This document shows positions 25,753-57,318 of a stretch of DNA of 64,000 bases, one piece after another (positions within the stretch are counted from its first letter, which is position 1; the number at the start of each line of letters is the position of its first letter). Under the pieces are notes generated by a model. It was given only the letters and a program-made list of their open reading frames with translations. It did no database searches and had not been told where the DNA came from. Source of the DNA: an uncultured Verrucomicrobiae bacterium (GTDB taxonomy: Bacteria; Verrucomicrobiota; Verrucomicrobiia; Limisphaerales; Palsa-1400); assembly GCA_963764165.1 (NCBI GenBank), contig CAVXRD010000001.1:1309959-1373958 (forward strand). Reading direction: 5' to 3'. Both the position numbers and the translations under genes were made by a program.

Positions 25753-25861
25753 TGGATTGGTGCCGCCATTGTATACCGGAATGGGCGTCGTCCAATAAGA
25801 AAAGCGGTTTGTGGCTGTCGTGCAAATGAAGGACACGGCAGAAAGTGAGACGCGGTAGGGC

Positions 25862-25997: not shown

Positions 25998-26010
25998 AGC
26001 ATGAACACTT

Positions 26011-26209
26011 GCGCCGCCACGCGTGGCGGGGAGAGAGAAGGAGAGAGGGGCTTTTCATAAAAATTTCGCGAAGCAATGCGAGTTGTAAGCGTTTGGGTTT
26101 CAGTTGTTTGCTAGACTCCCCCTCTCCCTAACCCTCTCCCCACTTCGCAGGGCGAGGGAATCAGAACGAGTCCTTCTGTTATTTGAATGCCATAAACTGA
26201 GATGCGCCC
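26011..26209. mobile_element. partial second copy of the 263-bp MITE found at 32485..32747 (opposite orientation, one end missing)
   Basis: Shares ccgccacgcgtggcggggagagagaaggagagaggggc, ccctctccctaaccctctccccacttcgcagggcgagggaa and the terminal aaactgagatgcgccc (ends 26209) with the reverse complement of the 32485..32747 element. The other terminus is replaced by the family-A repeat. Confidence 0.55.
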
Positions 26210-26289
26210 GCGAGCAAAAAATTCACATTAGGTTCTTGCTTTTGTGTCTATTCCCGGCTTTAAGTTTCCCGGCCTGTTGTCGGAGATGC

Positions 26290-28749
26290 ATGTTCATGCG
26301 TGGTCGTTCACATTGGAATCTGCTGGTCGGCATAAGCTGCTTATGGCTTTTTCTGGCTGCGCCACAGGTGTCGCGCTCCCAATCGTTCACCAACTCCGCC
26401 ACTCTGGCGGCTTCGACGGATGGGACGAATTTGATCATCAACTACTCCCTAGCTGCGGCGCAGGGATGGGTGACGCTCTTTTCGGCCTCCACGCCGCAAA
26501 TGCTTCTCACCAACGCCAAACCGGTGTGCTTGGCCGCTGCGACCCCTTCGCTTACCGGGCGGTTCACGGTTCCCATTCATTCAAACGCGCCTGTGCAATT
26601 TTATCGGCTCCTTCTCGAGCAATGGCCCACACGCGGGCAGGTGCTCGTCTTCACAAACGGCCCTATTGACTTTGCCGCCATGCTGGCAACGTATGGCAGT
26701 ATCACGAACAGTTCTCAGCCGTTTTTTGAAGGCAATGATGGTGATATAGAACCGACGAATTCCATCCCGATGATTTATACTCAACCGGTGGCCGTCTGGA
26801 TTGACAACCTCGGAACCTATAATACAAACGGCGCGTTAGTCGGTCCGAATGAAGGACTTTTGATTGGGAAATACGCGCAAACCTCGCTTGACACATTCAG
26901 CGATTGCGATTCCGATGCCTGTCCGGTCGCTCCCCTGTATTCGGCGAGTAACGATTTCCGCGTTCTTTACATGGGCGATTCAAACGTGACTGCAAGAGAA
27001 GGAGTTCTCTGGAGTTCTCAAGCGCAACTTTATTGCGACATCAATCGGTACCGCGAGCAATTCCTGAACGACGCCTTTATTGACAAATTGCAGTTGACGC
27101 CACAGATCGCAGCTAACTTAAAATACCTTCAATACCGACCGGACTTGATTAATCCATTTGATCTAGATCCCGACATTTATGCCGAGCCAACTATGGAAAT
27201 GTACGAGTTTTCTTTGCCAGATGGCATTCAGCTTTTCCCTGCCGAGAATATCGAAAGCGTCATCGTCAGAACCCGTGGCCCATTCAATAACGACGCATCT
27301 CTCCCACCGATTTCAGTTGCTTATGATTCAGGGGCCACCGTGGGGAATTATGCAACGCTGGCGGCGAATTGGATTCTCGGCACAAACACGGGAACTCCTT
27401 CAGATGCGTTTTACGGCTCAGCCGAACCGGGCGCGAATTGGGAGAACGATGTCCTTTCCCCTTTCGTCAACGGCCTATCTGCTTGGGTTGCCTATCGTCT
27501 CACCGGAACGAATGAGGTGTATACCCAACTTTCGTACATGCTCCGTATCTGGAATGGCTCGGCCTGCGGCGGGACCTGGATTCCCTGCGACAGAGGCCAA
27601 AACATCAGCAATGTAATGATGTTCAACGCCGCAGAAACGGACGCGGAAGGCGTCTTTCCCTTCACAGTGGCGGAAAATGTGACCTCTTACGACGGCCCTG
27701 TAGCCTCCGATCTTGCGGCTCTTTACTTCGGGGCCATTTTTTATGATATTGCCAATGAATCTGGATTGGGCTTGTACAAAACCGACTTGTTAATCTGGAA
27801 GACGCTCTCCCTTGTCACGAATGATCCGAACAGTTTGAGCATGGTTCAGTTTGGGGCCTACGTGCAGCAAGCGGCCCGCCTGCTTTGGCCCGACCTGCGC
27901 GAAGCCTATTCCGGTATGAGCCTTTACGAAAATGACCTCGTTGACGTCCTTGCCTCACGCGGGATTCCTATGAATGGGGTCTCCGATTTTCAGTCCAATT
28001 TACCGCCTTATATCGGCTCATATCCGGATACGCTGGAATACGACGGTCCCGGATTCGGTTCTAAGCATCCTGACATCCAAGCTCAAGTGAATGCCTACGG
28101 CGTTTATCAAGTCAATTACAACACTTTCACTTATTCAAACCCCGCGTCCTACGTCGCCTACCAGATCTATAAACACTCGAAGTATGGACCCTGCGATGAA
28201 GTCGCCATAACTGACGGAACCTTCACCATCAACCAGAACCCACCTTTCAATTGGTCCTATAATTACGACGGCACATTTTACACCGAGCTCTCGAATCGAT
28301 TCGGAAATTTGATTCTTTTTCTCCCAGGTACGGAGGTAAATTTTTTACGGAGCCGCCAGCGCTGCCCCGATGAGGCAACGGGTTCTTATGCCGAGGATGT
28401 GCAACCTTTTGGTTTTATTGTCACCCAAGCCATACCGAATGGATTTTCTTTCACTGTCTCCGCCCTGTCCTCAAACAGTGTTTTCAAAACCTATCAACTG
28501 ACGATTGTTGATCCCTCCACTAACACCCTGGGCGCCGCGAGTTACGCCTGGGCGTTCACGGATTACATGGGAAACATAGCCACCGTCTCCGGAAGCAGCG
28601 TCGAATACGACGCCAACATTGACGAGCCTTTCACCCTCAGCATTACCCGCACGCGCGGGAGCCAGAGCGACACGATTACCATGAGGGAGCGCGGCAATGA
28701 CCTCGACCGTGCCGGGGGCAATGCTTTCGTCAGGAACCTGGTGCCATAA
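26290..28749 (+). CDS. exported 819-aa protein of unknown function (N-terminal FYR-type beta domain)
   Basis: Start moved to MFMRGRSHWNLLVGISCLWLFLAAPQVSRSQS (signal peptide). The 62 upstream codons of track ORF 26104.. translate repeat DNA (PLSLTLSPLRRARE). The N-terminal domain ends ...RFTVPIHSNAPVQFYRLLLEQ. No HExxH or other catalytic motif was recognised. The gene looks AT-richer than its neighbours by eye. Confidence 0.8.
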   Translation: MFMRGRSHWNLLVGISCLWLFLAAPQVSRSQSFTNSATLAASTDGTNLIINYSLAAAQGWVTLFSASTPQMLLTNAKPVCLAAATPSLTGRFTVPIHSNAPVQFYRLLLEQWPTRGQVLVFTNGPIDFAAMLATYGSITNSSQPFFEGNDGDIEPTNSIPMIYTQPVAVWIDNLGTYNTNGALVGPNEGLLIGKYAQTSLDTFSDCDSDACPVAPLYSASNDFRVLYMGDSNVTAREGVLWSSQAQLYCDINRYREQFLNDAFIDKLQLTPQIAANLKYLQYRPDLINPFDLDPDIYAEPTMEMYEFSLPDGIQLFPAENIESVIVRTRGPFNNDASLPPISVAYDSGATVGNYATLAANWILGTNTGTPSDAFYGSAEPGANWENDVLSPFVNGLSAWVAYRLTGTNEVYTQLSYMLRIWNGSACGGTWIPCDRGQNISNVMMFNAAETDAEGVFPFTVAENVTSYDGPVASDLAALYFGAIFYDIANESGLGLYKTDLLIWKTLSLVTNDPNSLSMVQFGAYVQQAARLLWPDLREAYSGMSLYENDLVDVLASRGIPMNGVSDFQSNLPPYIGSYPDTLEYDGPGFGSKHPDIQAQVNAYGVYQVNYNTFTYSNPASYVAYQIYKHSKYGPCDEVAITDGTFTINQNPPFNWSYNYDGTFYTELSNRFGNLILFLPGTEVNFLRSRQRCPDEATGSYAEDVQPFGFIVTQAIPNGFSFTVSALSSNSVFKTYQLTIVDPSTNTLGAASYAWAFTDYMGNIATVSGSSVEYDANIDEPFTLSITRTRGSQSDTITMRERGNDLDRAGGNAFVRNLVP

Positions 28750-28787
28750 AAGCGGCGCGGCGGGCGGCGCCAGCCAAACGATTGGTG

Positions 28788-28896
28788 AGAAGTGCCAATG
28801 AACTAACTAAAGCGCCGGAGTGCGTCTGCGGAAGATGCCGGAGGCATCACAGCTTGCAGCCGGTGGTTGAGCGAAGCAACACCACCGGACACAACG
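28788..28896 (+). repeat. structured repeat family A, copy 2 (direct relative to copy 1)
   Basis: gagaagtgccaatgaac...gatgccggaggcatc-acagcttgcag-ccggtggttgagcgaagcaacaccaccgg-acacaacg. Collinear with 25862..25966. Confidence 0.7.
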
Positions 28897-28996
28897 ATAA
28901 TAATGACTCATCCCGGCAGGGATGACAGCGATGGGGTGCTGATGCGGCAGCCCATTTGACGAAACGGCGTGCCAAGTCCGCATTTCCGATGAGGCT

Positions 28997-29094
28997 GGCA
29001 TCCCTCCGGGATGCAGGAGGATTTTTGGGGCGTTTTTCCGGTGGTGTCGCTTCGCTCAACCACCGGCTACAAGCTCGCATCCCTGCCGGGATGC
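28997..29094 (-). repeat. structured repeat family A, copy 3 (inverted relative to copies 1 and 2)
   Basis: Its reverse complement reads gcatcccggcagggatgcgagcttgtagccggtggttgagcgaagcgacaccaccggaaaaacg...ctgcatcccggagggatgcc. That is nearly identical to 25902..25997. Confidence 0.75.
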
Positions 29095-29114
29095 TAACAA
29101 TTGAGTCCTGAAAT

Positions 29115-32100
29115 CTATCGCCCCAAATCAATCGTCAGCTTCACTGCCGCGCCACGCTCGGGCAGGCTTTCCCATTCGATCATCCCGGCGATGCTCTCAA
29201 TTCTCTTGCGCATGTTGGGCAGCCCGTTTCTGAGAGCAGACGATTCCGCACAGTTAGTCGCCGAATCCTGCGCAAAGCCCTTCCCGTTGTCGCGAATCAT
29301 CAGGATGAGCTTGCCGCGCTCGATCGCAATTTGAATCATGACCTCCGTGGCGGCGGCGTGTTTGACAATGTTATTCAGCGCCTCTTTGACGGTTAGAAAC
29401 AAATTATGCCGCACCTCGGCTGTCAAAAGAATTTCTGGCAGGAATTCCGGAACTTCCAACCGGCACGCGATCTTGGCAGTCTTCAAATACTCTTCGGCGA
29501 AGTTGCAGGTGTAAGTCACAAACTTCTCGAGGCTGTCGTTCGTTGGATTGACCGCCCAGACCACTTCATCCATGCGGCGCGTCAAGCTGCGCGCCTTGGC
29601 GGTGATCTTCTGCATGTCGGCCAGCACTTGAGCCGGTGAAGCGGACGGTTCCTGCGCAAATTCGCTCAGCAGCGCAATCTCCGTCAGGTTGGCTCCCAAG
29701 TCGTCGTGAATGTCACGCGCGATGCGCGAGCGCTCCCTTTCCACGGCACGTTCGCGCTCGGCCTGCTCCAAACGCCTGCGAACACGGCGGCGTTCGGAAT
29801 AGCGCACGGTCGAGAGAATGGCGGCAAGCCCGCCTGCCGTAGTCAATCCTAGAAACCACTTGGTCTCCCAGAAGTACGGGGCGGCCGCAATTTCAATCGT
29901 CGCCCCGGTATTGTTCCACACCCCATCTTCATTGCAGGCGATGACGTGGAATTGATAATTTCCGGGAGGAATGCGGCTGTAGACGGCGGTGCGTTTTGTT
30001 CCTGCGTCTTCCCAATCTTTGTCCAGATTTTCCAAACGATACTTGAATCGAACCCCATAAGGCGCAGCGAAGCTCAGAGCTGTATATTGAAATTCAACCC
30101 GGCGGTTGCCAGGCGCGAGAGTTATAATGCGCGGCAGCGTAAGCGTCGGCGTGGCATATCCGCTCGGCTGCGAATCCGCAGGCGTGTTTGTCAGGACGTC
30201 TTCGATCACGACGGTGGGTGGAAGCGTATTCCAGCCCACCGTTGCCGGATCCACCACGACCACTCCCTTCGTCGTGGGGAACCAAAGCCGGCCGTCGGGA
30301 GACTTGTAGCTCGAAGGTTGAAATCCACCCTGGCATTCAACGCTGGGAAGACCATCCTCCAAGGTGAAGGCGGCGCAACGCAGCGGTTCAACGCTGCCGG
30401 AGCCCGCCAACTCTTTCTTGCTGACTCTGAATACTCCACCGTAGGACCCGAGCCACAGATTCCCCAAGCTGTCGTCTTGAATCTGGCAAATCACATTATT
30501 GAGCAATCCGTTCTTGGTCGACCAGGTTTTGAAGTGTCCATTTTGCCAGCGGCTCAATCCGCCCCGGCATGATCCAACCCACAGAGTTCCTTCTCCATCA
30601 ACATAGAGGCACCAGATGGAATCGCTTTCCAGACCGTCTTTCCTGCCAAAGTGAGTGAACTTCCCGTCCCGCATTCGATACAACCCGTCCTCGCTGGTCC
30701 CCACCCACAAGTTGCCATCGTGATCTTCCACGATAGCCCGAACGTCGAGCGTGGCGGAAGTTCCCGGAATCTCGACCACGGTTCGTTCCGAATTGTGGAG
30801 GCGCGTAATGCCGCCAAAAGCCTGCTGGCCAATCCACAAATTGCTCTTGGAATCCTCAAAGATTGCCAGCACTTGCCAGCCGATGGTCTGCCCATCTGAC
30901 AGCCCGCTAAAACTGGCGCCATCCCACTTGTAAAGCCCGTCCCATGTGCCAGCCCAGACGGTTCCTCCGTGGTCTTGCACCACCGACCAAACATGCCCGT
31001 TTTTTAGTCCCTGGTTCGCGCCATAATGTTGAATTTCGCCGTTCCGGCAATGATCGAGTCCATCGCCATCGGTGCCAATCCAGACTCCGCCATCCTGCGC
31101 CCCCGCCACTGCCATCACTTGGTCGCTGGCCAATCCCTGCTTGCTTCCGAGCGTTTGAAATTTGGGGCGCTTCAAGCGGCACAGGCCACCTCCTTCCGTT
31201 CCGGCCCAAATATTCCCCTCTTTATCCTCCATCACGCAGCGAACGAAATCGGTGGGCAACCCATTATGCGAAGTGACGTGAAGCATCTGGCCATTGGTTT
31301 CATACCGAAACAAACCGTCGCCCAGAATCGCAACCCAAAGGCGGTTTTCCGCATCCTCGTACAAATCGTAGATCGGACGATTGGTCCATGAATAACTGCC
31401 GAGGTCAGCGGTCCAACGGCCTTCGGCGAATTTCCGCAATTGATTGTTGGCGGCGGCCCAAACTCCACCGGAGCGGCTGGAGGCCAGGAAATCCACTTGG
31501 AAACCGGCTTCGTTTGTCTGGCCCCACCTCGATTGAAACCGCCCATTCTGCAATACCGCCAGTTCGCTGGTGGTCCCGACCCAAATGCGGCCGCGATCAT
31601 CGCAGGCCAGCGCGTGGACCGCGCGGCTCGACAGATTCCAATCGTCCGAATCCACCTTGGACTGGCCGTTGAGGAATTTGATGAGCTGCCATTCGCACGA
31701 AACCTCCCACAAGGCGCCATCATGATCGCCGCAAAAATTGTGCGCGTATTCATGCGTGGTGCCGCGGCCGCGGGTTTCGAAGGCTGCGAATTGGCCGTCG
31801 CGAAGCCGCAAGAGCCCGCCGTGTTCCGTCCCCACCCAGAGCGTGCCGTCGTCGGTGCTCAGAAGCTGGACGATGCGGCTGTTTTTGATGGCCGGAGTGT
31901 TGTTCTCGTCGAAAACCTGAAATTTGACACCGTCAAAGCGAACCAGCCCGTTTTGTGTTCCCAGCCACAGGAATCCATCGGACGATTGCGAGATGCAGGT
32001 TACAGTGCTCTGGGGCAAGCCATCCTCAACCCGCCACGTTTTTGATTGGAATTCGGAGAGTGGCGCTGATTCGCCCGCGCGCAAATCATCCGCCACCAGG

Positions 32101-32189
32101 AAGAGCAGCATGCAGGAGATCCATTGAATGAGAATCCGGTCTGCCCACCTTGGCGGCGAGCCGGATTTGGGGGAAAGCTGAATAAACAT
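29115..32189 (-). CDS. sensor histidine kinase with periplasmic two-component-regulator beta-propeller repeats + Y_Y_Y domain, HisKA_3 + HATPase (NarL-partner type)
   Basis: Start chosen at MFIQLSPKSG...ILIQWISCMLLFLVA (32189). Many propeller repeats of the type GL....V..I..D..G.LW.GT..GL. Y_Y_Y segment VEFQYTALSFAAPYGVRFKYRLENLDKDWEDAG...YSRIPPGNYQFHVIACNEDGVWN. TM WFLGLTTAGGLAAILSTV. HisKA_3 box ERSRIARDIHDDLGANLTEIALL. ATPase IRDNGKGF. Confidence 0.88.
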   Translation of the reverse strand: MFIQLSPKSGSPPRWADRILIQWISCMLLFLVADDLRAGESAPLSEFQSKTWRVEDGLPQSTVTCISQSSDGFLWLGTQNGLVRFDGVKFQVFDENNTPAIKNSRIVQLLSTDDGTLWVGTEHGGLLRLRDGQFAAFETRGRGTTHEYAHNFCGDHDGALWEVSCEWQLIKFLNGQSKVDSDDWNLSSRAVHALACDDRGRIWVGTTSELAVLQNGRFQSRWGQTNEAGFQVDFLASSRSGGVWAAANNQLRKFAEGRWTADLGSYSWTNRPIYDLYEDAENRLWVAILGDGLFRYETNGQMLHVTSHNGLPTDFVRCVMEDKEGNIWAGTEGGGLCRLKRPKFQTLGSKQGLASDQVMAVAGAQDGGVWIGTDGDGLDHCRNGEIQHYGANQGLKNGHVWSVVQDHGGTVWAGTWDGLYKWDGASFSGLSDGQTIGWQVLAIFEDSKSNLWIGQQAFGGITRLHNSERTVVEIPGTSATLDVRAIVEDHDGNLWVGTSEDGLYRMRDGKFTHFGRKDGLESDSIWCLYVDGEGTLWVGSCRGGLSRWQNGHFKTWSTKNGLLNNVICQIQDDSLGNLWLGSYGGVFRVSKKELAGSGSVEPLRCAAFTLEDGLPSVECQGGFQPSSYKSPDGRLWFPTTKGVVVVDPATVGWNTLPPTVVIEDVLTNTPADSQPSGYATPTLTLPRIITLAPGNRRVEFQYTALSFAAPYGVRFKYRLENLDKDWEDAGTKRTAVYSRIPPGNYQFHVIACNEDGVWNNTGATIEIAAAPYFWETKWFLGLTTAGGLAAILSTVRYSERRRVRRRLEQAERERAVERERSRIARDIHDDLGANLTEIALLSEFAQEPSASPAQVLADMQKITAKARSLTRRMDEVVWAVNPTNDSLEKFVTYTCNFAEEYLKTAKIACRLEVPEFLPEILLTAEVRHNLFLTVKEALNNIVKHAAATEVMIQIAIERGKLILMIRDNGKGFAQDSATNCAESSALRNGLPNMRKRIESIAGMIEWESLPERGAAVKLTIDLGR

Positions 32190-32315: not shown

Positions 32316-32343
32316 ATAATACCACACAAGAGTGTAATTTCAA
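32316..32343 (-). promoter_or_regulatory. candidate sigma70-type promoter carried by repeat family B (TTGAAA-16 nt-TATTAT on the minus strand)
   Basis: The minus strand reads aaggTTGAAAttacactcttgtgtggTATTATgaag, which lies ~120 nt upstream of the kinase start at 32189. The paralogous copy (42690..42720) has a weaker version (catgta...cattat). Motif spotting only. Confidence 0.25.
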
Positions 32344-32484
32344 CCTTAATTGACAAAAGAGATTTTTCGGGCTTATGTTTCTCCCTGTCGCCGCCAGGGC
32401 GTGTTCTTTGACATTTTGCGGATTCCCTCGCCAGGGTATAGGGCAGCGGTGGTTTTTTAACGGGCTGTTCGGCAAGGCAGCTAA

Positions 32485-32747
32485 GGGCGCATCTCACTTT
32501 TTGGCAATCCCTTGCCGACGAAACGCGGTTTCCCTCGCCCTGCGAAGCGGGGAGAGGGTTAGGGAGAGGGGCGGTTAGGAAGCGACTTAAATCCATCGGC
32601 CTCAATGCGCATCGCCTCGCCTAGCATTAATGAGTTGCCCCTCTCTCCTTCTCTCTCCCCGCCAAGCGTGGCGGGGAGAGAGCGATCACTTGTCGCTCTG
32701 CGGAGCTTTTTGCAGAAGTCCGCCCTCACTAAAACTGAGATGCGCCC
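32485..32747. mobile_element. 263-bp MITE with terminal inverted repeats GGGCGCATCTCA(C/G)TTTT and 9-bp target-site duplication GGCAGCTAA
   Basis: The left end gggcgcatctcactttt (32485..) and right end aaaactgagatgcgccc (..32747) are inverted repeats. ggcagctaa occurs on both flanks (32476..32484 and 32748..32756). The paralogous family-B copy at 42507..42720 is uninterrupted at the equivalent position (an empty site). The interior is built of smaller GC-rich palindromes. Confidence 0.8.
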
Positions 32748-33054
32748 GGCAGCTAAATAAGTCATGATCGGGCATTGCGCGCTATTGCACCCTATTGCAC
32801 CCTTGGTTATTTGCGACTTGGCGGGTGCCCTCGCGGCCACTTAAATAGGGCCAACGCTTCCGCAGCGAAAATTTTGGGATGCCATACACTGCACCGTGTT
32901 TCATTGAATCGGCTCCAGCCGGAAGAAATGTAGCGGGTCTGTTGCGGGTCTGTAGCTATTTTTGTTGCGGGTTATCTGGTTGATAATCAACGATGTAGCG
33001 GGTGTAGCGGGTTTTTAGAGATTATAGCACATTCAATGCTGGAAGCACGGTGCC

Positions 33055-35901
33055 TTGCTCGGACTCTCCATGCGGTCTTCATTCGCGTCCAAAAAAGCTC
33101 GACCTGTCCGGCTCCGAGGGATTCATTATGCTGAAATAAATACGCCCCAACATCTTTCTGCGGAAAAAAGGATTCATGGCGCAACCCAAGGAGCGCGTCC
33201 GCTCGGGGCCACCTGTCTCTTCATGGCTTGCCTGATTTTGTGTGTGGCCGTTGGCAGAGCGCCTGGCGCGGTGGATTATATTTGGGTTGAAGGAGAGAAG
33301 CCGGTGACGCAGACGATGACCCGGCATCCCTGGTGGTATGACAAGGTGAAGAAGTACCAGCTTTCAGGCGGCGATTTCATATCCAATTGGAACGAAAAGC
33401 AGGCGGGGGAGGCGGCTTATGCGGTGCAAGCGCCAGCGGACAAGGATTACGTCTTTTGGATTCGCGCCAATCCGGTCGGGACGAAACTTTCCTACAAACT
33501 CGACGGCGGGGAATGGGCGTTGATCGATATGAACGGGGCTCAAGACACGGTCAACATCGCCGACGATGGAATGATTGATTTGCGTTTTTTGGCGTGGGCC
33601 AGAGTGGGCAAAGTCAGGCTGGCGCACGGACCGCATCGCATCGCTTTTCGGATGGACAGCGAGAATAACCATCACGGGATGCTGGATTGTTTTGTTTTCG
33701 CGAATGATACCTTCACACCCAGCGGAACTCACAAGCCGGGGGAAGACGCCAAGATTGCAGATGCGGCCAGCGAAGGAACTTGGGCATTCCATCCGCCGCG
33801 CGATGAGTTTTCTCCCGACGCCCTGCTGGACCTGCGTTCGCTGAATGAACATATCGCCGGAGAAAATGGCTTCGTGGGGCGCTCGCCAGAGGGAAGCGAT
33901 TTTGTGCTGGGCGATGGCAGGCCCGCGCGGTTTTGGGCCGTCAATGACGCGGCGTTTGGCACCGATCTCGCGCGTCACGCCCGCTTTCTAGCCAAGCGCG
34001 GCATCAACATGGTTCGTTTTCACTGCAACATCACCCCGACTGGGCATGACTTGATGGCCATTGATGAGCCGGATCGCGAGAAATTGTGGAAAGGAGTCGC
34101 GGCCATGAAAAAGGAAGGCATCTATGTGACTTACTCGCCGTATTGGGCGGGCGCGTCGCGCACAAAACCCGCGCTCGGATACCTTGACGATGGAGGCAAT
34201 CACAATTGGGGCTTGCTGTTTTTCGACGCCAAGCTCCAGGGGGCCTACAAGGCCTGGCTGAGGCAAGTATTGACAGAAAAAAACCCCTACACGGGCATTC
34301 CGCTGGCCGAGGATCCAGCGCTTGCGATCATCCAGATTCAGAACGAGGATTCGCTTTTGTTCTGGACGGAGCAAGGCATGAAGGTAGAGGCGCACAAGGA
34401 ATTGCGCCGCCAGTTTGCCGCGTTCGCCGCGAAAAAGTACGGCTCTCTTGAAACCGCGAAGTCGGCGTGGCAGAACGCTGAGCCATCCCCTGACCAGGAC
34501 GCTCCGGATGACTTTGCGCACCATGACGCCGCGTTGTACATCACATGGCAGCTGACGCAGCGCGGGGGAAGCGCCGGCCAGCAACAGCGCTGCGCCGATC
34601 AAATGCAATTCTTGACAGAGACGATGCGCCATTTCAATCAGATGATCGGCGATTACCTGAAAAACGAGCTTGGCTGCAAACAACTCGTCAACGCGGGCAA
34701 TTGGCGCACCGCCGACAACGTCACCATGCTTGATGCAGAGCGATGGTCTTACTCCGCCAACGACGTCATGGCGGTCAACCGCTACTACGACGGCGCCCAC
34801 GAAGGGGCGAACAGCGGCTGGGCGATCTGCACCGGCGACAAGTTCACAGATGATTCAGCATTGCTGCATCCGCGGGAATTGCCGCTGACACTCAAACAGG
34901 TGGCTGGATTTCCGATGATGGTTACCGAGAGTTCGTGGGTTCCGCCGCTGAGCCACCAATCCGAAGGGCCATTTCTAGTGGCCGCGTATCAATCGCTGAC
35001 CGGCATCGACGCCTATTTTTGGTTCGCGACGGGGGACGAAGATTGGCGGCAGCCGGGCTCGGCCAATGGATTTATGCCGTCAGAAGGCAAATGGGTTTGC
35101 GCCACGCCAATGCTTATGGGCCAATGGCCGGCAGCGGCGTTCATGCACCGCCTTGGTTACATCCAGCAAGGCGCGCCAGTCGTTTCCGAGCAGCGTCCAT
35201 TGGATGACCTGTGGCATCGGCAAATGCCAATCATCGCCGAGGACGCAGGCTACGACCCGAATCGTGACCAGGGCGCCCCAATGAAGCAGTCGAACATCAA
35301 AGCTGGCGTCAATCCCCTCGCCTACTTAGTCGGTCCCGTTGTTGCGAAGTATGGCGGGCCATCGGCTCCGAATAAAGCCGCGGACTTCAGCAATTATATT
35401 GACACCGAGCGCAAATCCATCCGCTCCATCACCCGCGAAATAACCCTGAACTACGGCAGCGGATGGTGCAGGCTGGACACACCCAAGGCACAAGGCGTGA
35501 CAGGTTTTCTGAAGGCTGCAGGCGTCTCGAAAATGGCCGATGTCGAAATTCGCTGCACGAATGATTACGCGACGGTGCTGGTCGTCGCGATGGACAACAA
35601 GCCGCTCAAGGACTCCGGCAAAATTCTGGTTCAAGTGGGAACGACCGAGCGCCCGCTCGGATGGAAGACAAAGCCCGCCACGGTTTTGGGCCGCGCCGGG
35701 GAGGAAGTTGTGAATTACGGCCACCCGCCGTGGATGATAGTCCGCGCCGATGTGGAAATTTCCGTGGCAAACCCGGGGCTCAAAACCGCCCGTGTGCTGG
35801 ATTGCAACGGAATGCCTGTGGGAGTGATTCCATTGGAGTCATTTGGCGGACGCGCGACGTTTAAATTTCCACCCGACGCGCTCTACGTGGTGCTTCAGTA
35901 G
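33055..35901 (+). CDS. exported glycoside hydrolase, clan GH-A TIM barrel (GH5/GH2/GH42-like) with N-terminal beta-sandwich
   Basis: 948-aa ORF. GINMVRFH, IYVTYSPYW and IIQIQNEDSLLFW (the N-E acid/base motif of clan GH-A). A hydrophobic signal-like segment ATCLFMACLILCVAVGRAPGA suggests the true start is near 33223 or a non-ATG codon just upstream. The start is uncertain. Confidence 0.7.
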   Translation: MLGLSMRSSFASKKARPVRLRGIHYAEINTPQHLSAEKRIHGATQGARPLGATCLFMACLILCVAVGRAPGAVDYIWVEGEKPVTQTMTRHPWWYDKVKKYQLSGGDFISNWNEKQAGEAAYAVQAPADKDYVFWIRANPVGTKLSYKLDGGEWALIDMNGAQDTVNIADDGMIDLRFLAWARVGKVRLAHGPHRIAFRMDSENNHHGMLDCFVFANDTFTPSGTHKPGEDAKIADAASEGTWAFHPPRDEFSPDALLDLRSLNEHIAGENGFVGRSPEGSDFVLGDGRPARFWAVNDAAFGTDLARHARFLAKRGINMVRFHCNITPTGHDLMAIDEPDREKLWKGVAAMKKEGIYVTYSPYWAGASRTKPALGYLDDGGNHNWGLLFFDAKLQGAYKAWLRQVLTEKNPYTGIPLAEDPALAIIQIQNEDSLLFWTEQGMKVEAHKELRRQFAAFAAKKYGSLETAKSAWQNAEPSPDQDAPDDFAHHDAALYITWQLTQRGGSAGQQQRCADQMQFLTETMRHFNQMIGDYLKNELGCKQLVNAGNWRTADNVTMLDAERWSYSANDVMAVNRYYDGAHEGANSGWAICTGDKFTDDSALLHPRELPLTLKQVAGFPMMVTESSWVPPLSHQSEGPFLVAAYQSLTGIDAYFWFATGDEDWRQPGSANGFMPSEGKWVCATPMLMGQWPAAAFMHRLGYIQQGAPVVSEQRPLDDLWHRQMPIIAEDAGYDPNRDQGAPMKQSNIKAGVNPLAYLVGPVVAKYGGPSAPNKAADFSNYIDTERKSIRSITREITLNYGSGWCRLDTPKAQGVTGFLKAAGVSKMADVEIRCTNDYATVLVVAMDNKPLKDSGKILVQVGTTERPLGWKTKPATVLGRAGEEVVNYGHPPWMIVRADVEISVANPGLKTARVLDCNGMPVGVIPLESFGGRATFKFPPDALYVVLQ

Positions 35902-41912: not shown

Positions 41913-42263
41913 AGGAGGGATAGATTAACCGAGCCTCACAGACACCGCAACCGCCAAACGTAACAATTCGGTTACGAGGGCGTGGGACAAACTTCTTCAT
42001 CTCCGCGTTGGCACTAAGCGCCCCGCGGCGCGGCACCTTTGTAGAAACGATCATTAAAAGATCTTTCGGCTCCGTCAGCGGCACTTTGCCGAGGACAGCC
42101 GGAAATGGGCAAGAGGATTGAACAGCAAGCTCACACGAAGAGGACGCTTCGGGAATCGTACTGGTTGGAATCGCAGCCCCCTGTCTCTTTTTGACCAACT
42201 TTGATCAGGAGGGTCTAAATCGACCATTTAGGTGGCATGTACAGTCATACCCCCCCTAAAAAG

Positions 42264-42345
42264 CCGTCACACCCGTCACAACGTTGTCCATCAACGACTT
42301 AGTCCGTCACAAAACCGTCACACGGGCCGACACAGACCCGTCACA
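42264..42345 (+). repeat. iteron-like array: five exact CCGTCACA copies plus one CCGACACA variant, all in one orientation
   Basis: Copies at 42264, 42273, 42304, 42315, (42327 variant) and 42338. The last four are spaced 11-12 bp apart, about one helical turn. It sits in the intergenic region between leuC and the PadR operon. Confidence 0.6.
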
Positions 42346-42506
42346 AACGCAGGGCAGACGCATCGTAATTCTTGTAATCTGCTTCGGATTTAAGATGCGT
42401 CTCCCCCTTGGTCACAAACGTTCTTCACAATTTAGTGGCGGATGGATATGTCTGTGTGTTCCTCTGCGCACTCATCTTCCCTGCGCGACCGTTCTCTGTC
42501 GCGAAA

Positions 42507-42720
42507 AACCAAGGGTGCAATAGGGTGAAATAGCGTGCAACGCCCCGATCACGGCTTATTTAGTTCCCGCACCCGACAGCCCGTTAAAAAACCAACTGCA
42601 TCCTGGCGCGGAAATCCGCAAAATATTAAAGAACACGCCCTGCTGGCGACAGGGAGAAGCATAAGGCCGAAAACCTCTCTGTCAATTAAGCATGTAATTG
42701 CACGCTGCTGTGGCATTATG
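42507..42720 (+). repeat. repeat family B (~215-bp gene-upstream element), intact copy
   Basis: See 32311..32808. This copy lies directly upstream of, and in the same orientation as, the PadR gene (start 42783). Confidence 0.7.
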
Positions 42721-42782
42721 GGGCGGCAACGAGTCCTTTTTTGATTTGGTTCTGGAATTTCCTTGATATACATTTCACTGCA

Positions 42783-43133
42783 ATGTATTCTCCTCTTGTG
42801 AAGTTGGAAAAGGAATTGGTGGCGGCTTCGTCGGCGCCGCTGGTGCTTTCGATCCTGGGTGAGGGCGATAGCTACGGCTATGCCATCATTCAGCGCGTCA
42901 GGACGATTTCCGATGGCAAGATCACGTGGACGGACGGAATGCTGTATCCCGTTTTGCACTGGCTGGAGGATCAAGGCCAGGTGGAAAGCCGCTGGGTTAC
43001 TGCCGAAAACGGACGGGAACGGAAATATTATGCGTTGACCGATAAAGGTCGGAAGGCGCTCCAAAAGCATCAGGAACAGTGGTCTGCCGTCAACTCGGCC
43101 TTGAATCAATTTTGGAAGCCGCGCCATGCCTGA
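42783..43133 (+). CDS. PadR family transcriptional regulator
   Basis: Start chosen at MYSPLVKLEKEL. Winged-helix PadR pattern LVLSILGEGDSYGYAIIQRV...GMLYPVLHWLEDQGQVESRW...RKYYALTDKGRKAL. Confidence 0.85.
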   Translation: MYSPLVKLEKELVAASSAPLVLSILGEGDSYGYAIIQRVRTISDGKITWTDGMLYPVLHWLEDQGQVESRWVTAENGRERKYYALTDKGRKALQKHQEQWSAVNSALNQFWKPRHA

Positions 43134-44139
43134 CATCGAGACACGGATCGCGGAGTGGCGCAGCCGGCTGATCTCGGCAGGCGTCAATACCGAGATTTGC
43201 AGGGAGCTCGAAAGCCATTTACGCGAGAAGGTGGACGAATTTCGGCGCTCGGGAGCCACGGAAACCGAGGCCTTGGAACGAGCCGCCGCGGAAGTGGGTT
43301 CGCCACCCGAGATTGCATCCGAATTCAAAAAACTCCGGCCGACCCTGTGGCTGCCTGTTAAAATCACGATGGCCATCGGGATCGCGTCGGGAATTCTGGT
43401 GGGCGCTCCGATGGCCGCCAGTCTTGATGGGGCCGAAAGCTTCCTAGCTCTGGGCCATATTTTCAACCTGACGCTCGGCTATATCGTCGCGCTTCTGGCG
43501 GGCGTGCTCGGTATTTGCTTTGTGTGCCAGAGAGTTTTTTCAAACTTCCCGCGGACGCGATTGCCCGCGTTAAGGCTTGTCACTTCGAGGTTTGTTTCCC
43601 TTGCTGCGGCGCTGACTGCTTGTGGTATTATTCTGGGCTTCGTCTTGATGCAAACGCAAGAGATGCGCGATCGAGGATGGAGACCCGCCATGCCAGGAAT
43701 GAACGCGCACGCCGTCCGGGGTCCAGTAATACGACGCGGAGGCAAGCGGATCGAAGGGGGAGTGATGCAAAGTCTTTCAATTTTTCCAATGTGGGCGGCT
43801 CGCCCGCCGGCGTGGCCGCCTTGGGTATACGAAGGAGATGTGGACTTGACGATCATGCACAACAACCGTCTCGCCACAGGATGGCTGATGAAAGGGAAGG
43901 CCGCGGCTTCGGTGTGCGTGCTGTTGTGGCTGGTTTTGGTGCTGGCCGTCCAGCGCTCCCGCAGCCTGGACGAGCGTGGAATTCAGCTCTTAAACATTCT
44001 AAGCATCGGCTTGGTTGGCCTGGCAACACTTGGGCCGTTTCTGCCGCCGATAGTGCTAAGCCTCGTCTTTTTCCTCATTGGGCTCGCTCCAGAGAGATGG
44101 TTTCGCCGGTCACTGTCATTCGCGGCGTCTCCTCAGTAG
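43126..44139 (+). CDS. membrane protein with PadR-associated N-terminal 'permease prefix'-like helix domain
   Basis: 337 aa. It overlaps the PadR stop by 8 nt. N-terminus MPDIETRIAEWRSRL...ELESHLREKVDEFRRSGATETEALERAAAEVGSPPEIASEFKK, then several TM helices. Confidence 0.65.
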   Translation: MPDIETRIAEWRSRLISAGVNTEICRELESHLREKVDEFRRSGATETEALERAAAEVGSPPEIASEFKKLRPTLWLPVKITMAIGIASGILVGAPMAASLDGAESFLALGHIFNLTLGYIVALLAGVLGICFVCQRVFSNFPRTRLPALRLVTSRFVSLAAALTACGIILGFVLMQTQEMRDRGWRPAMPGMNAHAVRGPVIRRGGKRIEGGVMQSLSIFPMWAARPPAWPPWVYEGDVDLTIMHNNRLATGWLMKGKAAASVCVLLWLVLVLAVQRSRSLDERGIQLLNILSIGLVGLATLGPFLPPIVLSLVFFLIGLAPERWFRRSLSFAASPQ

Positions 44140-45162
44140 TCATCGATGCGCGGAGCAATGCTGTTGGAGCCACACGATATCCTGATCGTTTGGCACCGAA
44201 TCGGATGTCCACGAATAATAGGTATTGGGAATCATAGGGGGTTCGGTTCGGGGATCCAGCCATCGATGAACTTCCGAGTGTCCGTCCGCAAACGAAATGC
44301 CGCTGCAGCCGTTATGATAGTTGGCCGGAATATTGGCGAATCGGGCATTGGCGTTTGTGGCCGTCATCGACACGACAAAATAGGCGTCATTAATGGAGTC
44401 CGCTCTTTCGTCGATAAACACGAACGCATTTGCCGGACCGGGATTCTGAATGCTCGAGAGCTTGCCGGGATTGTTAAAATCAGCAACCGGGGCGGTGCTA
44501 TAATCGCCGCCATTCATCCTCATGTTCATGGAAACAGAGCGGACGCGGGATTGGATGGACCCGTTGATATAGACCGTGCTGGGATCCGAAGGGCACACAT
44601 AGAGCGGCAACGATTTGGAATAGGGCCAAAGCAAGCCTTTCGGACTCATTAGATTAGTGACGCTGGTATTGTCAGAGTCGGTCGGGTTGGACCAATCCAT
44701 CCAGCCTGCCGCCCAACTGTTCGTGTTGTAGGTCAAAACGTCGTCACCCAGCGTGTTAGTGACCAGCAAATCGGCGGAATCGCCGGCGTATAACGTCCAG
44801 GCGATGCTTAATTGTTTCATGTTGGATGAGCATTTGATTCCCTTCGCCTGTTCTTTGGATTTCGCTAATGCCGGAAGCAGCAACGACGCCACGATGGCAA
44901 TGATGGCAATAACCACCAGCAATTCGATCAGGGTGAATGCTTTCGTGTCCGCAACCCTGAGCCGGATGGTTTGGGGAGCGCACGCGCCTCGCGTGCCGTG
45001 TTCCGCGCCCTCGCGGAACACATTCGATGCCTGAACCGTTCGGTTGGACGAATTTGCCAAAGGCGACTGGCGAGGCGCCAGTCGTCCACACCCGAGGGCG
45101 GGTGTGCTCCCCGTGAAATGAACCGCATCGTCCCGGCTAAGTTTTTGCCATGATGCCTTCAT
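44140..45162 (-). CDS. prepilin-type N-terminal cleavage/methylation domain protein, DUF1559 / H-X9-DG family (pseudopilin-like)
   Basis: [46 protein letters not shown]9-DG motif [17 protein letters not shown]. The 80-codon leader before the prepilin helix contains a GC-rich palindromic element (44973..45021), and no other in-frame ATG/GTG lies closer, so the start is uncertain. Confidence 0.8.
44973..45021. repeat. GC-rich REP-like element (GGGGAGCGCACGCGCC core plus the palindrome GTGTTCCGCG..CGCGGAACAC)
   Basis: ggggagcgcacgcgcctcgcgtgc matches ggggagcgcacgcgcccccgcgtgc at 52010..52034. It is followed by the hairpin gtgttccgcgccctcgcggaacac (44998..45021). Confidence 0.55.
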
Positions 45163-49607: not shown

Positions 49608-49775
49608 AAATTAAATAATCTGGAACGCCCGAATGCTGGAAAAGAGGCCGGAGTCGTTTTGCAAGTGATGGGCGGTGAGATGAATTAAGGCTCAGTGCCG
49701 GATCCGAAGTCACGATGCGTGTGAATCCGCCTTCATCTCTTTTCCTGAGTTCGGTCGTTCCAGATTCAATTTTTC
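49608..49775 (+). repeat. repeat family C (~170-bp self-complementary element), copy 1, downstream flank of the toxin-antitoxin pair
   Basis: aaattaaataatctggaacgcccgaatgctggaaaagag...ctcttttcctgagttcggtcgttccagattcaatttttccc. The two ~29-nt arms are inverted repeats. It is collinear with 50448..50622 at about 75% identity by eye. Confidence 0.75.
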
Positions 49776-49823
49776 CCATTTTTTCTCCAAAAAACCACGG
49801 CGTCCCGCATTGACTTGCATTGG

Positions 49824-50135
49824 TCAGGACTCCATTTTCATCACGACCAGATTCATCGTGCCGGAACGAACTCGATAAAAAACAACATCTTTCGCCGGGG
49901 TGACGGAATAGAAAATGAGCCAGCGCGCGAAGCCATTCCCCCGCCAGGAACGGATGCCAACCGGGGATAAATCCTTACGCTCCCGTCCAATATGTGGATT
50001 CTCCTCAATGAACTCAATTGTTGCGAGCAAGGCTTGATACCACCGCTCCGCAACGTCCGCGCCCGCGTTCTCGTTGAGCCAGATTAGCTCCTCGGCCAAG
50101 TCTGCCAGGAAGTGCGGGCGTTTGCGGGCGCTCAC
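49824..50135 (-). CDS. type II toxin, RelE/ParE family
   Basis: 103 aa. ...AERWYQALLATIEFIEENPHIGRERKDLSPVGIRSWRGNGFARWLIFYSVTPAKDVVFYRVRSG fits the ParE/RelE plasmid-stabilisation pattern. It has a 4-nt overlap with the upstream antitoxin gene. Confidence 0.8.
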   Translation of the reverse strand: MSARKRPHFLADLAEELIWLNENAGADVAERWYQALLATIEFIEENPHIGRERKDLSPVGIRSWRGNGFARWLIFYSVTPAKDVVFYRVRSGTMNLVVMKMES

Positions 50136-50386
50136 CTCTTGCCCTTTAACACCCGATCACGGATGGCCTCCATTTCCTTTCTGGTCAAGGGCGTGGCCGG
50201 ACCGCTGGCGACGGCCTCATCAATCCATTGTTGGTCGCGCTTGGTGGTCAGCGCGGCGTCAATCTGGAAGGTTCGTTCCAGGCGGCTCATGGCCTCCTGG
50301 GTGAGGCTGCGGAAATTCGCGGCCGCTTCCCTTTTCAACTGCGCGTGCAGTTCGATCGGGATGTCTTTCAACGTAATGCTCGCCAT
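50132..50386 (-). CDS. ribbon-helix-helix (Arc/FitA-like) antitoxin
   Basis: Start chosen at MASITLKDIPIELHAQLKREAAANFRSLTQEAMSRLERTF (an RHH beta-strand plus two helices). 84 aa. Confidence 0.7.
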   Translation of the reverse strand: MASITLKDIPIELHAQLKREAAANFRSLTQEAMSRLERTFQIDAALTTKRDQQWIDEAVASGPATPLTRKEMEAIRDRVLKGKR

Positions 50387-50447
50387 ACACCGCAACCATA
50401 ACGGCACCACACTGGTTTGACAAGCTGACTCGACAGCTGGCAAAGGG

Positions 50448-50622
50448 AAAATTAAATAATCAGGAACGCCCGAACGCAGGAAAAGAAGGCCGAAGTCCTT
50501 TCGCAGGTGATGGATGGTGAGACTAGTTTCGGCTCAGCGCCTGACCCGAATCAACGGCGCGCATGGACGACAAGTTCAGTCTCTTTTTCTGCGTTCGGGC
50601 GTTCCTGATTCAATTTTTCCCC
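50448..50622 (+). repeat. repeat family C, copy 2, upstream flank of the toxin-antitoxin pair
   Basis: aaattaaataatcaggaacgcccgaacgcaggaaaagaa...tctttttctgcgttcgggcgttcctgattcaatttttcccc. The arms at 50457..50485 and 50582..50610 are near-perfect inverted repeats. Confidence 0.75.
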
Positions 50623-55551: not shown

Positions 55552-55632
55552 TGTTTGATTTCTATTGGCATCTCCAGGAAGCGGTGCTTGAATTCCCATG
55601 CGACTCAATTGTGTCAATACTCGGAGGACATT

Positions 55633-57318
55633 ATGTCGAAGATACTTTTCATCATTGTTTTCAGCGGCATCATTGAATTCTTGACCGCGACACCCGCCGC
55701 CGCAGACGGGACCAATGGCGCGTGCGTCACGCCGCCCTCGGGTCTTGTTGGCTGGTGGAAGGGGGAAGACAACGCGAATGACAGCGCGGGCGCCGACAAC
55801 GGCGCGCTCTCGCCAACCGGCGCGACTTACGCGCCGGGGATGGTTGGGCAGGCGTTCCATTTTGACGGCAGCAACGGCTTCGTGCAAATTCCAGATTCCG
55901 CGGCTCTTAAGCCCGCCGCCGTCACGATTGAAGCGTGGGTCTGGCTGGACCCAGGTTTGACCAACCACGGCGGTGAACAAATCGTCTTCAAGAAAAACAC
56001 CTGGTCCGCCTATTTCGAAGGTTACAGCCTGTTGAAATACGGCGACGGAATTTCCCCCGACGTTTTCGAGTTTTGTGTTTCAAGCCACGGCGACCAGGTG
56101 CCCGTATATGGGCTAACAGCCGTGCAGCGCGGGGCTTGGTATCACGTCGCCGCTACTTACGACGGCAGCGAAGCCATCCTTTACGTCAATGGTGTTGCGG
56201 ACGGTTCGGCAACGGCAGGCTTTCCTCTGGATTACGACACCACGCCGCTTTTCATCGGCACGACGGGCACGTGGCCACCATACTTGAGCATGTTCGGCGG
56301 CGTTATTGATGAGGTTTCCTTATACGATCGGGCATTGTCGCCCGAGGAGATTAAGGCCCTCTACAGCGCGGACTCCGCGGGCAAATGCCCACCCGGCTGC
56401 ACGACGCCGCCATCAGGATTGGTGGCGATGTGGAAGGGCGAAGACAATGTCATTGACAGCACCGGCACGAACAATGGCACGCTCTCGGCCTCCGGCGCAA
56501 CCTACGGGCCGGGAATGGTTGGGCGGGCTTTCCGTTTTGATGGAACCAATGGCTTTGCGCAAATCCCCGACTCACCCGTTCTGAAGCCCGCCGCGGTCAG
56601 CATCGAAGCGTGGGTCTGGCTCGATCCAAGCCTTCCCGCCGAGCAAGGCGGAGAGCAGATCGTGTTCAAAAAAAATACCTGGTCCGCCTATTTCGAAGGC
56701 TACAGCCTCTTGAAATACAGTGACGGAATTGACCCCGATGTCTTCGAGTTTTGTGTTTCGCGAAACGGCGATCAAAGGACCCTTTATTCGCAGACGATTG
56801 CGGAACGCGGAGTTTGGCATCACGTCGCTGCGACTTATGACGGGACAAACATCGCGCTTTACATCAACGGCGAAGTGGAAGATTCGGGAGTGGCGCCATT
56901 CCCGCTGGATTATGACACCACTCCACTTTTCATCGGCACCACGGGCACGTGGCAGCCTTACCTGAACATGTTCGGCGGCATGATTGACGAGGTTTCCATT
57001 TACAGCCGGGCGCTGTCGTCCAACGAAATTGCCGCCATTTACTCCGCTGGCGCTTATGGCAAGTGCGTGCCGGAAACGGCGCAAGACAAATTCTTAAATC
57101 CCCAAAATGCTGGCGGTAATTTGAATGCCGAATTCGCGGGCGCGCCGGGAGTGACGTACACGATTGAATCCGCCGTCAGTCTTGGCGGGCCCTGGACCAA
57201 GGTGGCGAATTTTCAATCACCCTTAACCGATCAAGGATTGGGCGCGGGGGTTTTTGCATTCTCGACCCCCGCCACAAACAGCGCGCAGTTTTTCCGCGCA
57301 GTATGTCCTGCTTATTGA
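55633..57318 (+). CDS. exported protein with two tandem LamG / concanavalin-A-like (Laminin_G_3) modules and an FYR-type C-terminal domain
   Basis: Start MSKILFIIVFSGIIEFLTATPAAA with GGAGGA 5 nt upstream. Each module carries ...FDGSNGF.QIPDS..LKPAAV.IEAWVWLDP...W.HVAATYDG....LY.NG...IDEVS.Y.RALS. The C-terminus is ...YTIESAVSLGGPWTKVANFQSPL...NSAQFFRAVCPAY. Confidence 0.8.
   Translation: MSKILFIIVFSGIIEFLTATPAAADGTNGACVTPPSGLVGWWKGEDNANDSAGADNGALSPTGATYAPGMVGQAFHFDGSNGFVQIPDSAALKPAAVTIEAWVWLDPGLTNHGGEQIVFKKNTWSAYFEGYSLLKYGDGISPDVFEFCVSSHGDQVPVYGLTAVQRGAWYHVAATYDGSEAILYVNGVADGSATAGFPLDYDTTPLFIGTTGTWPPYLSMFGGVIDEVSLYDRALSPEEIKALYSADSAGKCPPGCTTPPSGLVAMWKGEDNVIDSTGTNNGTLSASGATYGPGMVGRAFRFDGTNGFAQIPDSPVLKPAAVSIEAWVWLDPSLPAEQGGEQIVFKKNTWSAYFEGYSLLKYSDGIDPDVFEFCVSRNGDQRTLYSQTIAERGVWHHVAATYDGTNIALYINGEVEDSGVAPFPLDYDTTPLFIGTTGTWQPYLNMFGGMIDEVSIYSRALSSNEIAAIYSAGAYGKCVPETAQDKFLNPQNAGGNLNAEFAGAPGVTYTIESAVSLGGPWTKVANFQSPLTDQGLGAGVFAFSTPATNSAQFFRAVCPAY

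Follow-up and report, generated by a model that had tools for sequence, protein, structure and literature searches.

The stretch of Verrucomicrobiota DNA analysed here (64,000 nucleotides, hereafter the window) carries two copies of an intergenic repeat, each next to a regulator gene. Copy A (42498-42746, plus strand) lies between leuC and a padR-family regulator gene (42783..43133, plus strand; Pfam PadR, E 1e-24), which is followed by a gene for a 337-aa protein with a weak HAAS-domain match (43126-44139, plus strand). Copy B (32817-32290, minus strand) lies between a 948-aa open reading frame (ORF; 33055-35901) and a sensor histidine kinase gene (29115..32189, minus strand) with Pfam matches to Reg_prop (five), Y_Y_Y, HisKA_3 and HATPase_c. 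Both intergenic regions separate divergent genes. The context is ordinary (sensors, metabolism). Their sources assign LeuC homologues at 85-91% identity to Limisphaerales, Verrucomicrobiae or Verrucomicrobiota, and these labels, taken with the DUF1559/N-methyl genes among the window ORFs, suggest a Verrucomicrobiota origin. The 337-aa protein has no relatives in GTDB representative genomes, and a search of 5.8 billion proteins gave no orthologue of it. Exact look-ups of the window's LeuC and of the kinase read from its ATG at 32189 retrieved no record.

The two copies are real, and their similarity is far beyond chance. They are homologous once a 263-bp miniature inverted-repeat transposable element (MITE) nested in copy B is taken out. 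BLASTN of copy A against the window returns two arms, 42498-42569 against 32817-32747 (86% identity over 72 nt, E 1e-17) and 42576-42720 against 32468-32315 (81% over 154 nt, E 1e-34), and a repeat finder run on the window recovers both. This bears out the end-to-end match of about 80% that the initial annotation had described by eye; its start at 42507 does not hold, as homology begins at 42498 and fades around 42746. The CAGCCCGTTAAAAAACCA block named there is exact in both copies (42577..42594, plus strand, in A; 32450..32467, minus strand, in B), with a chance expectation of 0.03 matches, and so is the hairpin block GAACACGCCCTG..GGCGACAGGGAG. A tandem pair of GGTGCAATAG had also been listed; it is exact in B but carries one mismatch in A (GGTGAAATAG). 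The proposed TTGAAA-16-TATTAT with its TG is present in copy B at 32343-32316, and the distances to the genes agree: the -10 of A ends at 42719 ahead of the padR ATG at 42783, and that of B ends at 32316 ahead of the kinase ATG at 32189.

The window copies belong to a dispersed family. Scanning metagenome contigs with the hairpin pattern identified five contigs of metagenome project VFSW01 (L002-L006), and copies were defined with BLAST and nhmmer profiles over these contigs and the window. The family comprises eight copies of a ~135-bp core (A, B, L002, L003, L004, L005, which is cut by the contig end, L006c1 and L006c2), five copies of a module T with three GGTGCAATAG repeats and four copies of a six-site iteron array U, in varying combinations. 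The 64-kb window holds no further copy besides A and B by these profiles. A long form (A, B, L002, L006c2) runs from T through a middle segment to the core and starts with GTCGCG..., whereas a short form (L003, L004, L005, L006c1) begins just before GCAAAAT, with the limit GAAATGAAC-GCAAAAT. The CAGCCCGTTAAAAAACCA block lies between T and core and occurs as variants in L002 and L006c2.

Module order varies as well. Copy A reads U-X-T-core and L004 reads U-T-X, where X is a fragment of another repeat family that adjoins different modules in different copies. The X of copy A (GTGTTCCTCTGCGCACTCATCTTC..., 42431..42495, plus strand) abuts T and matches L003 3-49, L004 4230-4287 and L006 62-113 at 84-91% (BLAST). 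In L004, U and T are followed by other repeats, and a second core there faces them in the opposite orientation. T and core are separated by a MITE in both B and L006c2, the latter with an 8-bp duplication (CACGATTT). The insert in copy B is a bona fide MITE outside the repeat family (32485..32747): its termini are 12-bp inverted repeats (GGGCGCATCTCA/TGAGATGCGCCC), and 9 bp of target sequence are duplicated on either side (GGCAGCTAA, at 32476-32484 and 32748-32756). It recurs as a partial copy at 26014-26211, near a response-regulator gene, and its long hairpin gives sub-threshold microRNA-precursor matches in Rfam.

The core contains a nearly invariant block. Conservation was measured on an alignment of the seven full core copies as sliding mean pairwise column identity, which is 0.87-1.0 across a 51-nt block of the form GCAAAAT.T.AAAGAACACGCCCTG-N7-CAGGGAGAA.CATAAGGCC (42618..42668, plus strand, in A; 32369..32419, minus strand, in B) and 0.45-0.65 in the adjoining segments. 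The block contains a CCCTG-N7-CAGGG palindrome (arms 42638-42642 and 42650-42654 in A; 32383-32399 in B) whose stem and loop GGCGA are invariant. The block is followed by ~15 nt of low conservation and variable length among copies; then comes TGTCAATT, invariant in six of the seven, followed by TTG.A..T.CAC..T...GTGG.AT. Such uneven conservation (0.9-1.0 against ~0.5 alongside) argues for selection over uniform decay.

This pattern bears on whether the repeat is simply a decaying, functionless remnant of a larger unit, such as the regulatory end of a prophage, insertion sequence or genomic island, or an old intergenic segmental duplication, in which case the copies would resemble each other through common descent alone. 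The ragged 5' and 3' limits and the shuffled module order would suit a remnant, as would the MITE insertions within copies and the leader sequence that L003, L004 and L006c1 share over different lengths, as truncations would give. Uniform decay, however, would not leave a 51-nt block at ~95% column identity beside segments at ~50%, nor would it hold both promoter spacers (below) at 16-18 nt, and none of the copies found is a full-length master with genes. We regard a remnant as distinctly unlikely.

The core also carries predicted sigma-70-type promoters on both strands. The leftward promoter is found in all seven full copies, with TTGACA in six and TTGACC in one, a spacer of 16-18 nt and TAT(G/T)(T/C)T. 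It reads TTGACA-16-TATGCT in copy A (42658..42685, minus strand) and TTGACA-18-TATGTT in copy B (32350..32379, plus strand, facing the 948-aa ORF), each with 10 of 12 consensus matches. The L004 site, scored by script as a 13-nt spacer with CATTAT, was re-read by eye as 16 nt with TATTTT. The sequence of the leftward spacer is the least conserved part, as a promoter would predict, while its length holds despite indels. The rightward promoter combines a -35 of TTG(A/T/C)A(A/C), a spacer of constant length (16 nt) that ends in invariant GTGG (a TG-extended -10) and a TATTAT-like hexamer. It is best in copy B (TTGAAA-16-TATTAT, 32316..32343, minus strand, 10 of 12 matches, facing the kinase gene) and weaker in copy A (ATGTAA-16-(TGTGG)CATTAT, 42692..42719, plus strand, facing padR), which the scan that matched the other six full copies left out and which was read by eye; the consensus scan that lists the leftward site of A does not list it either. 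Sigma-70-type hexamers and spacing thus recur across copies in both directions (copy A rightward and L004 leftward by eye). The initial annotation had noted promoter-like sequence at the 3' end only; the rightward promoter is indeed there, but the opposite-strand TTGACA promoter, the better conserved of the two in the family, had been overlooked. Sigma-54 and extracytoplasmic function (ECF) promoter readings of the conserved blocks were considered and rejected because the spacing does not fit.

The arrangement of these sites is compact. The two -35 hexamers stand back to back, 6 bp apart, and transcription is predicted to start at ~42726 (A) and ~32309 (B) rightward and at ~42651 (A) and ~32386 (B) leftward. 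The palindrome begins 2-3 nt past the leftward -10, so that the predicted leftward start falls inside it, and its centre is ~80 bp upstream of the predicted rightward start. The first ~25 nt of the rightward transcript in copy A (ATGGGGCGGCAACGAG..., 42720..42746, plus strand) are weakly conserved, and the hmm match ends at 42746; across the family, the 3' limit ranges from ~10 to ~85 nt beyond the rightward -10, copy by copy. The geometry suggests a divergent promoter pair with an operator.

Our favoured reading, which we hold at a little under an even chance, is that A and B are members of a modular dispersed intergenic repeat family with a promoter/operator core that regulates at the DNA level. 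The core would supply two divergent sigma-70-type promoters, and the palindrome of the 51-bp block could be an operator or an activator site, placed over the leftward start and upstream of the rightward one. The rightward promoter would transcribe the padR operon with a leader of ~57 nt and the sensor kinase gene with a leader of ~120 nt; judged from sequence, the cassette probably drives both in the window. The leftward promoter would read back through T toward the divergent gene. Copies may have spread by recombination or duplication of intergenic cassettes, which would be likelier than cut-and-paste transposition. The analysis establishes the repeat and its family, how the modules are arranged, where conservation is concentrated, the promoter-like geometry and the absence of RNA or ORF signals, whereas promoter firing, protein binding to the palindrome and repeats, and the spread of copies are what we infer.

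The T module may add to the regulatory sites. In copy A (42498..42569, plus strand) it consists of GTCGCGAAAAACCAAGG and three 10-bp-phased repeats (GGTGCAATAG, GGTGAAATAG, CGTGCAACG) and ends in TTATTTAG; copy B (32748..32817, minus strand) has GGTGCAATAG twice plus CGCGCAATG. The third T repeat finds a 9-nt perfect inverted match in the rightward promoter spacer of A and L002. Long copies carry three GTGCAAT repeats at 10-bp phase together with an inverted copy of the word in the rightward spacer, and these are probably further binding sites of one protein. The locus of copy A is present on a single other public contig, the 2.5-kb Logan contig L001 (ERR11523676), which is 100% identical to window 42511-44994 and stops inside the first T repeat. 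This end may reflect a repeat-induced assembly break, hinting at more genomic copies of T.

Upstream of T, four copies (A, B, L004, L006c2) carry the U module, ~115 nt long and 40-290 nt away. The element delimited in the initial annotation leaves out this further shared array, which precedes both window copies. U contains six direct repeats of 8-9 nt (42235-42347, plus strand, and 32923-33039, minus strand, in the window; L004 3609-3725; L006 4261-4377) at offsets 0, 9, 40, 51/52, 62/63 and 74/75 in all four, with a GTTG..CAAC palindrome after the second repeat (CGTTG..CAACG in copy A). With its left flank, the U of copy A (42178..42347, plus strand) is 84% identical to L004 3553-3720 (nhmmer E 9e-28), and that of copy B has the same scaffold (nhmmer E 2e-29). 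Copy A has five exact CCGTCAC(A) repeats (42264, 42273, 42304, 42315 and 42338) and a degenerate sixth (CCGACACA) near 42327, while copy B has CCGCTACA/CCGCAACA at 33010, 33001, 32970, 32947 and 32936. The word differs in concert between copies on a conserved scaffold: CCGTCACA in A and L004, CCGCTACA/CCGCAACA (CCGCWACA) in B and GTGGCAACA in L006c2. Five of the 15 window-wide matches to CCGTCAC and five of the nine to CCGC[TA]ACA cluster within U stretches of 80 nt. Several short direct repeats at helical phase are what marks an iteron array, and U has the look of an operator or iteron array whose specificity varies from copy to copy. There is no common candidate for a cognate DNA-binding gene among the neighbours of U (leuC/padR, the 948-aa ORF/kinase and a Kelch-repeat protein).

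A bolder version of the favoured reading makes U-T-core a portable regulatory cassette, in which a shared operator (the invariant palindrome and the GTGCAAT words) would govern the promoter pair, and the iteron array, with its word swapped in concert, would key each copy to a different DNA-binding protein. We consider this improbable. If true, U-T-core would be a chromosomal, dispersed analogue of the control regions for plasmid partition and replication.

Several observations weigh against a regulatory promoter/operator core. No candidate binding protein was identified, and the hexamer scans report matches to a consensus only. The rightward hexamers are weak in some copies (ATGTAA in A; TTGCAC/TATTTG in L003). 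The 51-nt block exceeds the typical length of an operator, and its loop is as invariant as its stem. The MITEs between T and core in B and L006c2 indicate that the T-core spacing is not constrained. The placement of the extra copies is also unfavourable: the L002 copy begins 11 nt past the stop codon of a hybrid kinase, L003 faces a UPF0175 gene on the opposite strand with cysK ~1 kb away, L004 runs into MITEs and a convergent gene, and L006c1 lies 290 nt ahead of a fragment resembling the N-terminus of an IS110-like transposase (by eye; no Pfam match). A FecR-serpin gene lies ~500 nt downstream of L006c2.

The annotation had placed both window copies immediately 5' of co-directional regulator genes. 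This is the case in A and B, whose rightward promoters face the regulator gene with a co-directional start within 60-125 nt, but most of the extra copies are not so placed. Their orientation toward genes is mixed and the downstream genes are heterogeneous or absent, so a consistent orientation does not extend to the family. Of the three observations that the annotation had named as refuting its reading, two therefore hold: the inconsistent orientation and the lack of compensatory changes (below). The transposase-like fragment (L006 661-870, plus strand; MTTKLMAGIDLHSNN..., no Pfam match) seems to be truncated by another repeat. The idea that L006c1 encodes an IS110 bridge RNA was rejected, as the conservation lies upstream of the start and the gene is absent at all other copies.

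The repeat could instead act as RNA, either in a forward leader or as a leftward transcript of ~150-190 nt running through the A-rich block and T to a U-run at the T boundary. The homology on the reverse strand does begin at a consensus promoter and extend to a boundary rich in U (CCCUUGGUUUUUCG), and a scan calls the hairpin with its T-rich tail terminator-like on the reverse strand in both window copies. Rfam, however, gives no relevant match at the gathering threshold over the window, in keeping with the annotation's failure to recognise a known motif, and nothing relevant appears under permissive limits either (E<=10 over A, E<=1 over B, E<=0.1 over L002-L006). The compensatory substitutions expected of a conserved RNA are not seen: RNAalifold on the seven cores gives ~-10 kcal/mol for either strand and next to no covariation (terms of -0.3 and +0.45 kcal/mol), at the low power of seven sequences. 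The forward consensus fold has 10 pairs, five of them invariant and one with a double change, and the reverse fold has 24 pairs, again with one double change; the pairs of the hairpin never vary and are hence uninformative on covariation. Folding energies are at background, with z-scores of -0.7 to +0.9 for the predicted leftward transcript (the reverse 5' part) and, over the full length of the long form, -2.2 to +0.3 on the forward and -1.2 to +0.3 on the reverse strand, the folds differing between copies. Position also tells against an RNA: the predicted rightward start leaves ~190 of the ~215 nt upstream of it and hence outside the padR and kinase leaders, the predicted leftward start falls within the 5' arm of the hairpin, and MITEs interrupt the putative RNA in two of the four long copies. 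With no Rfam match, almost no covariation and no excess folding energy, the shared 5' leader RNA that the annotation had offered is unsupported, and we consider a structured RNA of either kind very unlikely.

The repeat does not appear to encode a protein. Six-frame translations of the cores contain no conserved ORF, and a six-frame profile of the seven cores has no matches in a protein database. A forward mini-ORF (M-A/T-S/N-E..SIVQ) was rejected on account of frameshifts and the lack of an ATG in L002, and a reverse ORF (MFLPVAVRACS..) was rejected because three of the eight copies lack the ATG and second codon positions vary.

A selfish, non-autonomous mobile element is another explanation. 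Here a transposase or HUH-type enzyme, encoded elsewhere, would recognise the hairpin block and the subterminal GTGCAAT and iteron repeats, and the promoter hexamers would be incidental or serve the element. The copies are indeed dispersed in unrelated contexts from two sources, their conservation centres on a hairpin with an invariant loop, and short repeated words near one end have an inverted copy near the other. Copies also occur in repeat-rich intergenic regions and at contig ends. Across 31 kb of leuC loci from three relatives (89-91% LeuC identity), no U, T or core module occurs, which would fit mobility; synteny upstream of leuC differs in these relatives, so that the comparison shows lineage restriction and not a true empty site. 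In the closest of them (L016 2-835, minus strand), the gene upstream of leuC resembles, by eye, part of a Cas9-like protein, and the upstream synteny is hence not conserved in the lineage.

The boundaries do not resemble those of a transposon. No terminal inverted repeats were found at the homology boundaries of the unit; the sole inverted repeats are internal 9-11-nt matches between a T repeat and the promoter spacer, and homology runs 34 nt and >40 nt beyond them. No target-site duplication was found at the boundaries of T or core, and a 12-nt direct pair (42183/42733) is not one, as it falls within sequence common to L004. Both limits are ragged and copy-specific, and discrete, constant ends are absent. 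Structurally, the repeat is better described as an intergenic mosaic than as a discrete transposon. The hairpin stem, only 5 bp long, lacks the GTAG/CGTC tag, unlike repetitive extragenic palindromic (REP) elements, whose superfamilies are defined by this tag and stems of 8-9 bp or more, often in inverted dimers (PMC3733652). Only two copies lie in 64 kb, and no transposase or integrase family is among the Pfam matches of the larger window ORFs, several of which have no match at all. The annotation's other proposal, a promoter-delivering mobile element, thus holds for its dispersal (eight cores from two sources) and for its promoters but not for mobility, and we think a selfish element unlikely, though it is the rival we take most seriously.

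The internal inverted repeats raise a further alternative, namely that the family may consist of phase-variable invertible promoters of Verrucomicrobiota. Inversion of the segment bounded by AGCGTGCAA (T) and TTGCACGCT (promoter spacer) would turn the TTGACA promoter toward padR or the kinase gene. The repeats are 9-11 nt long and 157-177 nt apart in A, L002 and, imperfectly, B, and the stronger promoter now points away from the adjacent regulator gene; the switch fimS uses 9-bp repeats. The match is perfect over 9 nt in A and L002, extends to 9 of 11 positions in B and is degenerate (6 of 9) in L006c2. All four long copies, however, show a single internal orientation. L005 and L006c1 have no T nearby, and the contigs of L003 and L004 end just upstream. 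Pfam scans of the larger window ORFs revealed no invertase family, and the identical Logan contig passes unbroken through the right-hand repeat. Of all the alternatives, we give promoter inversion the least credence.

The repeat family appears to be previously undescribed, although of a known kind of element, and restricted to its lineage. The hairpin pattern has 0 matches in GTDB representative genomes, viral, plasmid and phage collections hold nothing related to the element, and degenerate U and T patterns match only unrelated AT-rich phage contigs. The literature contains no described Verrucomicrobia repeat of this kind and no paper on VFSW01 or ERR11523676.

The window encodes other features of note near the two copies. 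A palindrome (ATACATTTCA/TGCAATGTAT, 42768-42788) overlaps the padR start codon and resembles PadR operators of the ATGT/ACAT type. It may be an autoregulatory site of padR, separate from the repeat. Between the kinase gene downstream of copy B and a NarL-type response regulator gene (25120-26076, minus strand), its likely partner, lies a stretch (25901-29095) in which 77-nt inverted repeats (92% complementary) bracket ~3.0 kb with an 881-aa ORF without Pfam match. This stretch may have been inserted into a two-component operon, splitting it.

Further repeats and RNAs are found elsewhere in the window. A MITE-like repeat of ~175 bp occurs twice (49608-49777 and 50449-50621), with inverted ends (GGGAAAAATTGAATCTGGAACG...), and brackets a minus-strand coding stretch (~49890-50390) that is a putative two-gene module; one end of this repeat adjoins the U module in L006. 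A cobalamin riboswitch (6629-6814, plus strand; Rfam RF00174, 82 bits) precedes a 718-aa ORF (7041-9197) without Pfam match. A match to the catalytic domain of group II introns (61443-61518, minus strand; RF00029, 50 bits) is flanked by an isopropylmalate/isocitrate dehydrogenase gene and the next ORF. Finally, a gene with a concanavalin-like Laminin_G_3 domain (55555-57318) includes a tandem duplication of ~675 nt (55729-57066, 74-78% identity).

In Verrucomicrobiota, promoters and other regulatory DNA have hardly been characterised. The family offers a testable promoter consensus for the lineage (TTGACA-17-TATGYT and TTGAAA-16-TGnTATTAT, plus the 51-bp invariant block) and may exemplify the copying of regulatory sequence to positions ahead of regulator genes (padR, two-component kinase). 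If a binding protein is found, the iteron array, whose word changes with the copy, would offer a compact natural experiment on how DNA-binding specificity is set. The element is no new class of RNA and has no bearing on a long-standing open question, and we consider its value moderate.

The likeness to known systems differs from module to module. Like the R1 parC and pSM19035 omega sites, U places short direct repeats beside promoters (six, four of them at ~11-bp phase), and its word differs between copies on a kept scaffold, as expected if each copy were bound by a different protein. Such iteron and heptad operator arrays sit in plasmid control regions. U, in contrast, is chromosomal, has no adjacent ParR- or omega-like gene and no match in plasmids or phages, so the likeness is one of form only. 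The fimS switch of E. coli and the polysaccharide promoters of Bacteroides fragilis likewise feature a promoter segment of ~200 bp found ahead of several loci, in which short inverted repeats surround a promoter; the present repeat differs in the single orientation of its four copies, in repeats that are 9-11 bp and imperfect, and in that no invertase was found nearby. It also falls outside the definition of REP/REPIN elements, with its 5-bp stem, CACG/AGAA flanks and one unit per copy.

Dispersed intergenic repeats provide the closest parallels. The Correia elements of Neisseria (CREE/NEMIS) are, like the present family, repeats of ~100-200 bp that can, depending on the copy, place promoter hexamers and protein-binding sites beside unrelated genes. 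Correia elements are flanked by a TA target duplication, end sharply in 26-bp terminal inverted repeats and number hundreds of copies; inverted termini, target duplication and sharp ends were not found here. BOX elements of Streptococcus pneumoniae and the BIMEs of E. coli share with our repeat the separable modules in varying order, the intergenic location and an indirect or obscure mode of spread, and effects on the expression of neighbouring genes have been suggested. There is no sequence relation to either, and the present modules are longer, with a promoter pair and an iteron array instead of REP-type palindromes. The element would thus work most like the Correia elements and looks most like the BOX/BIME mosaics.

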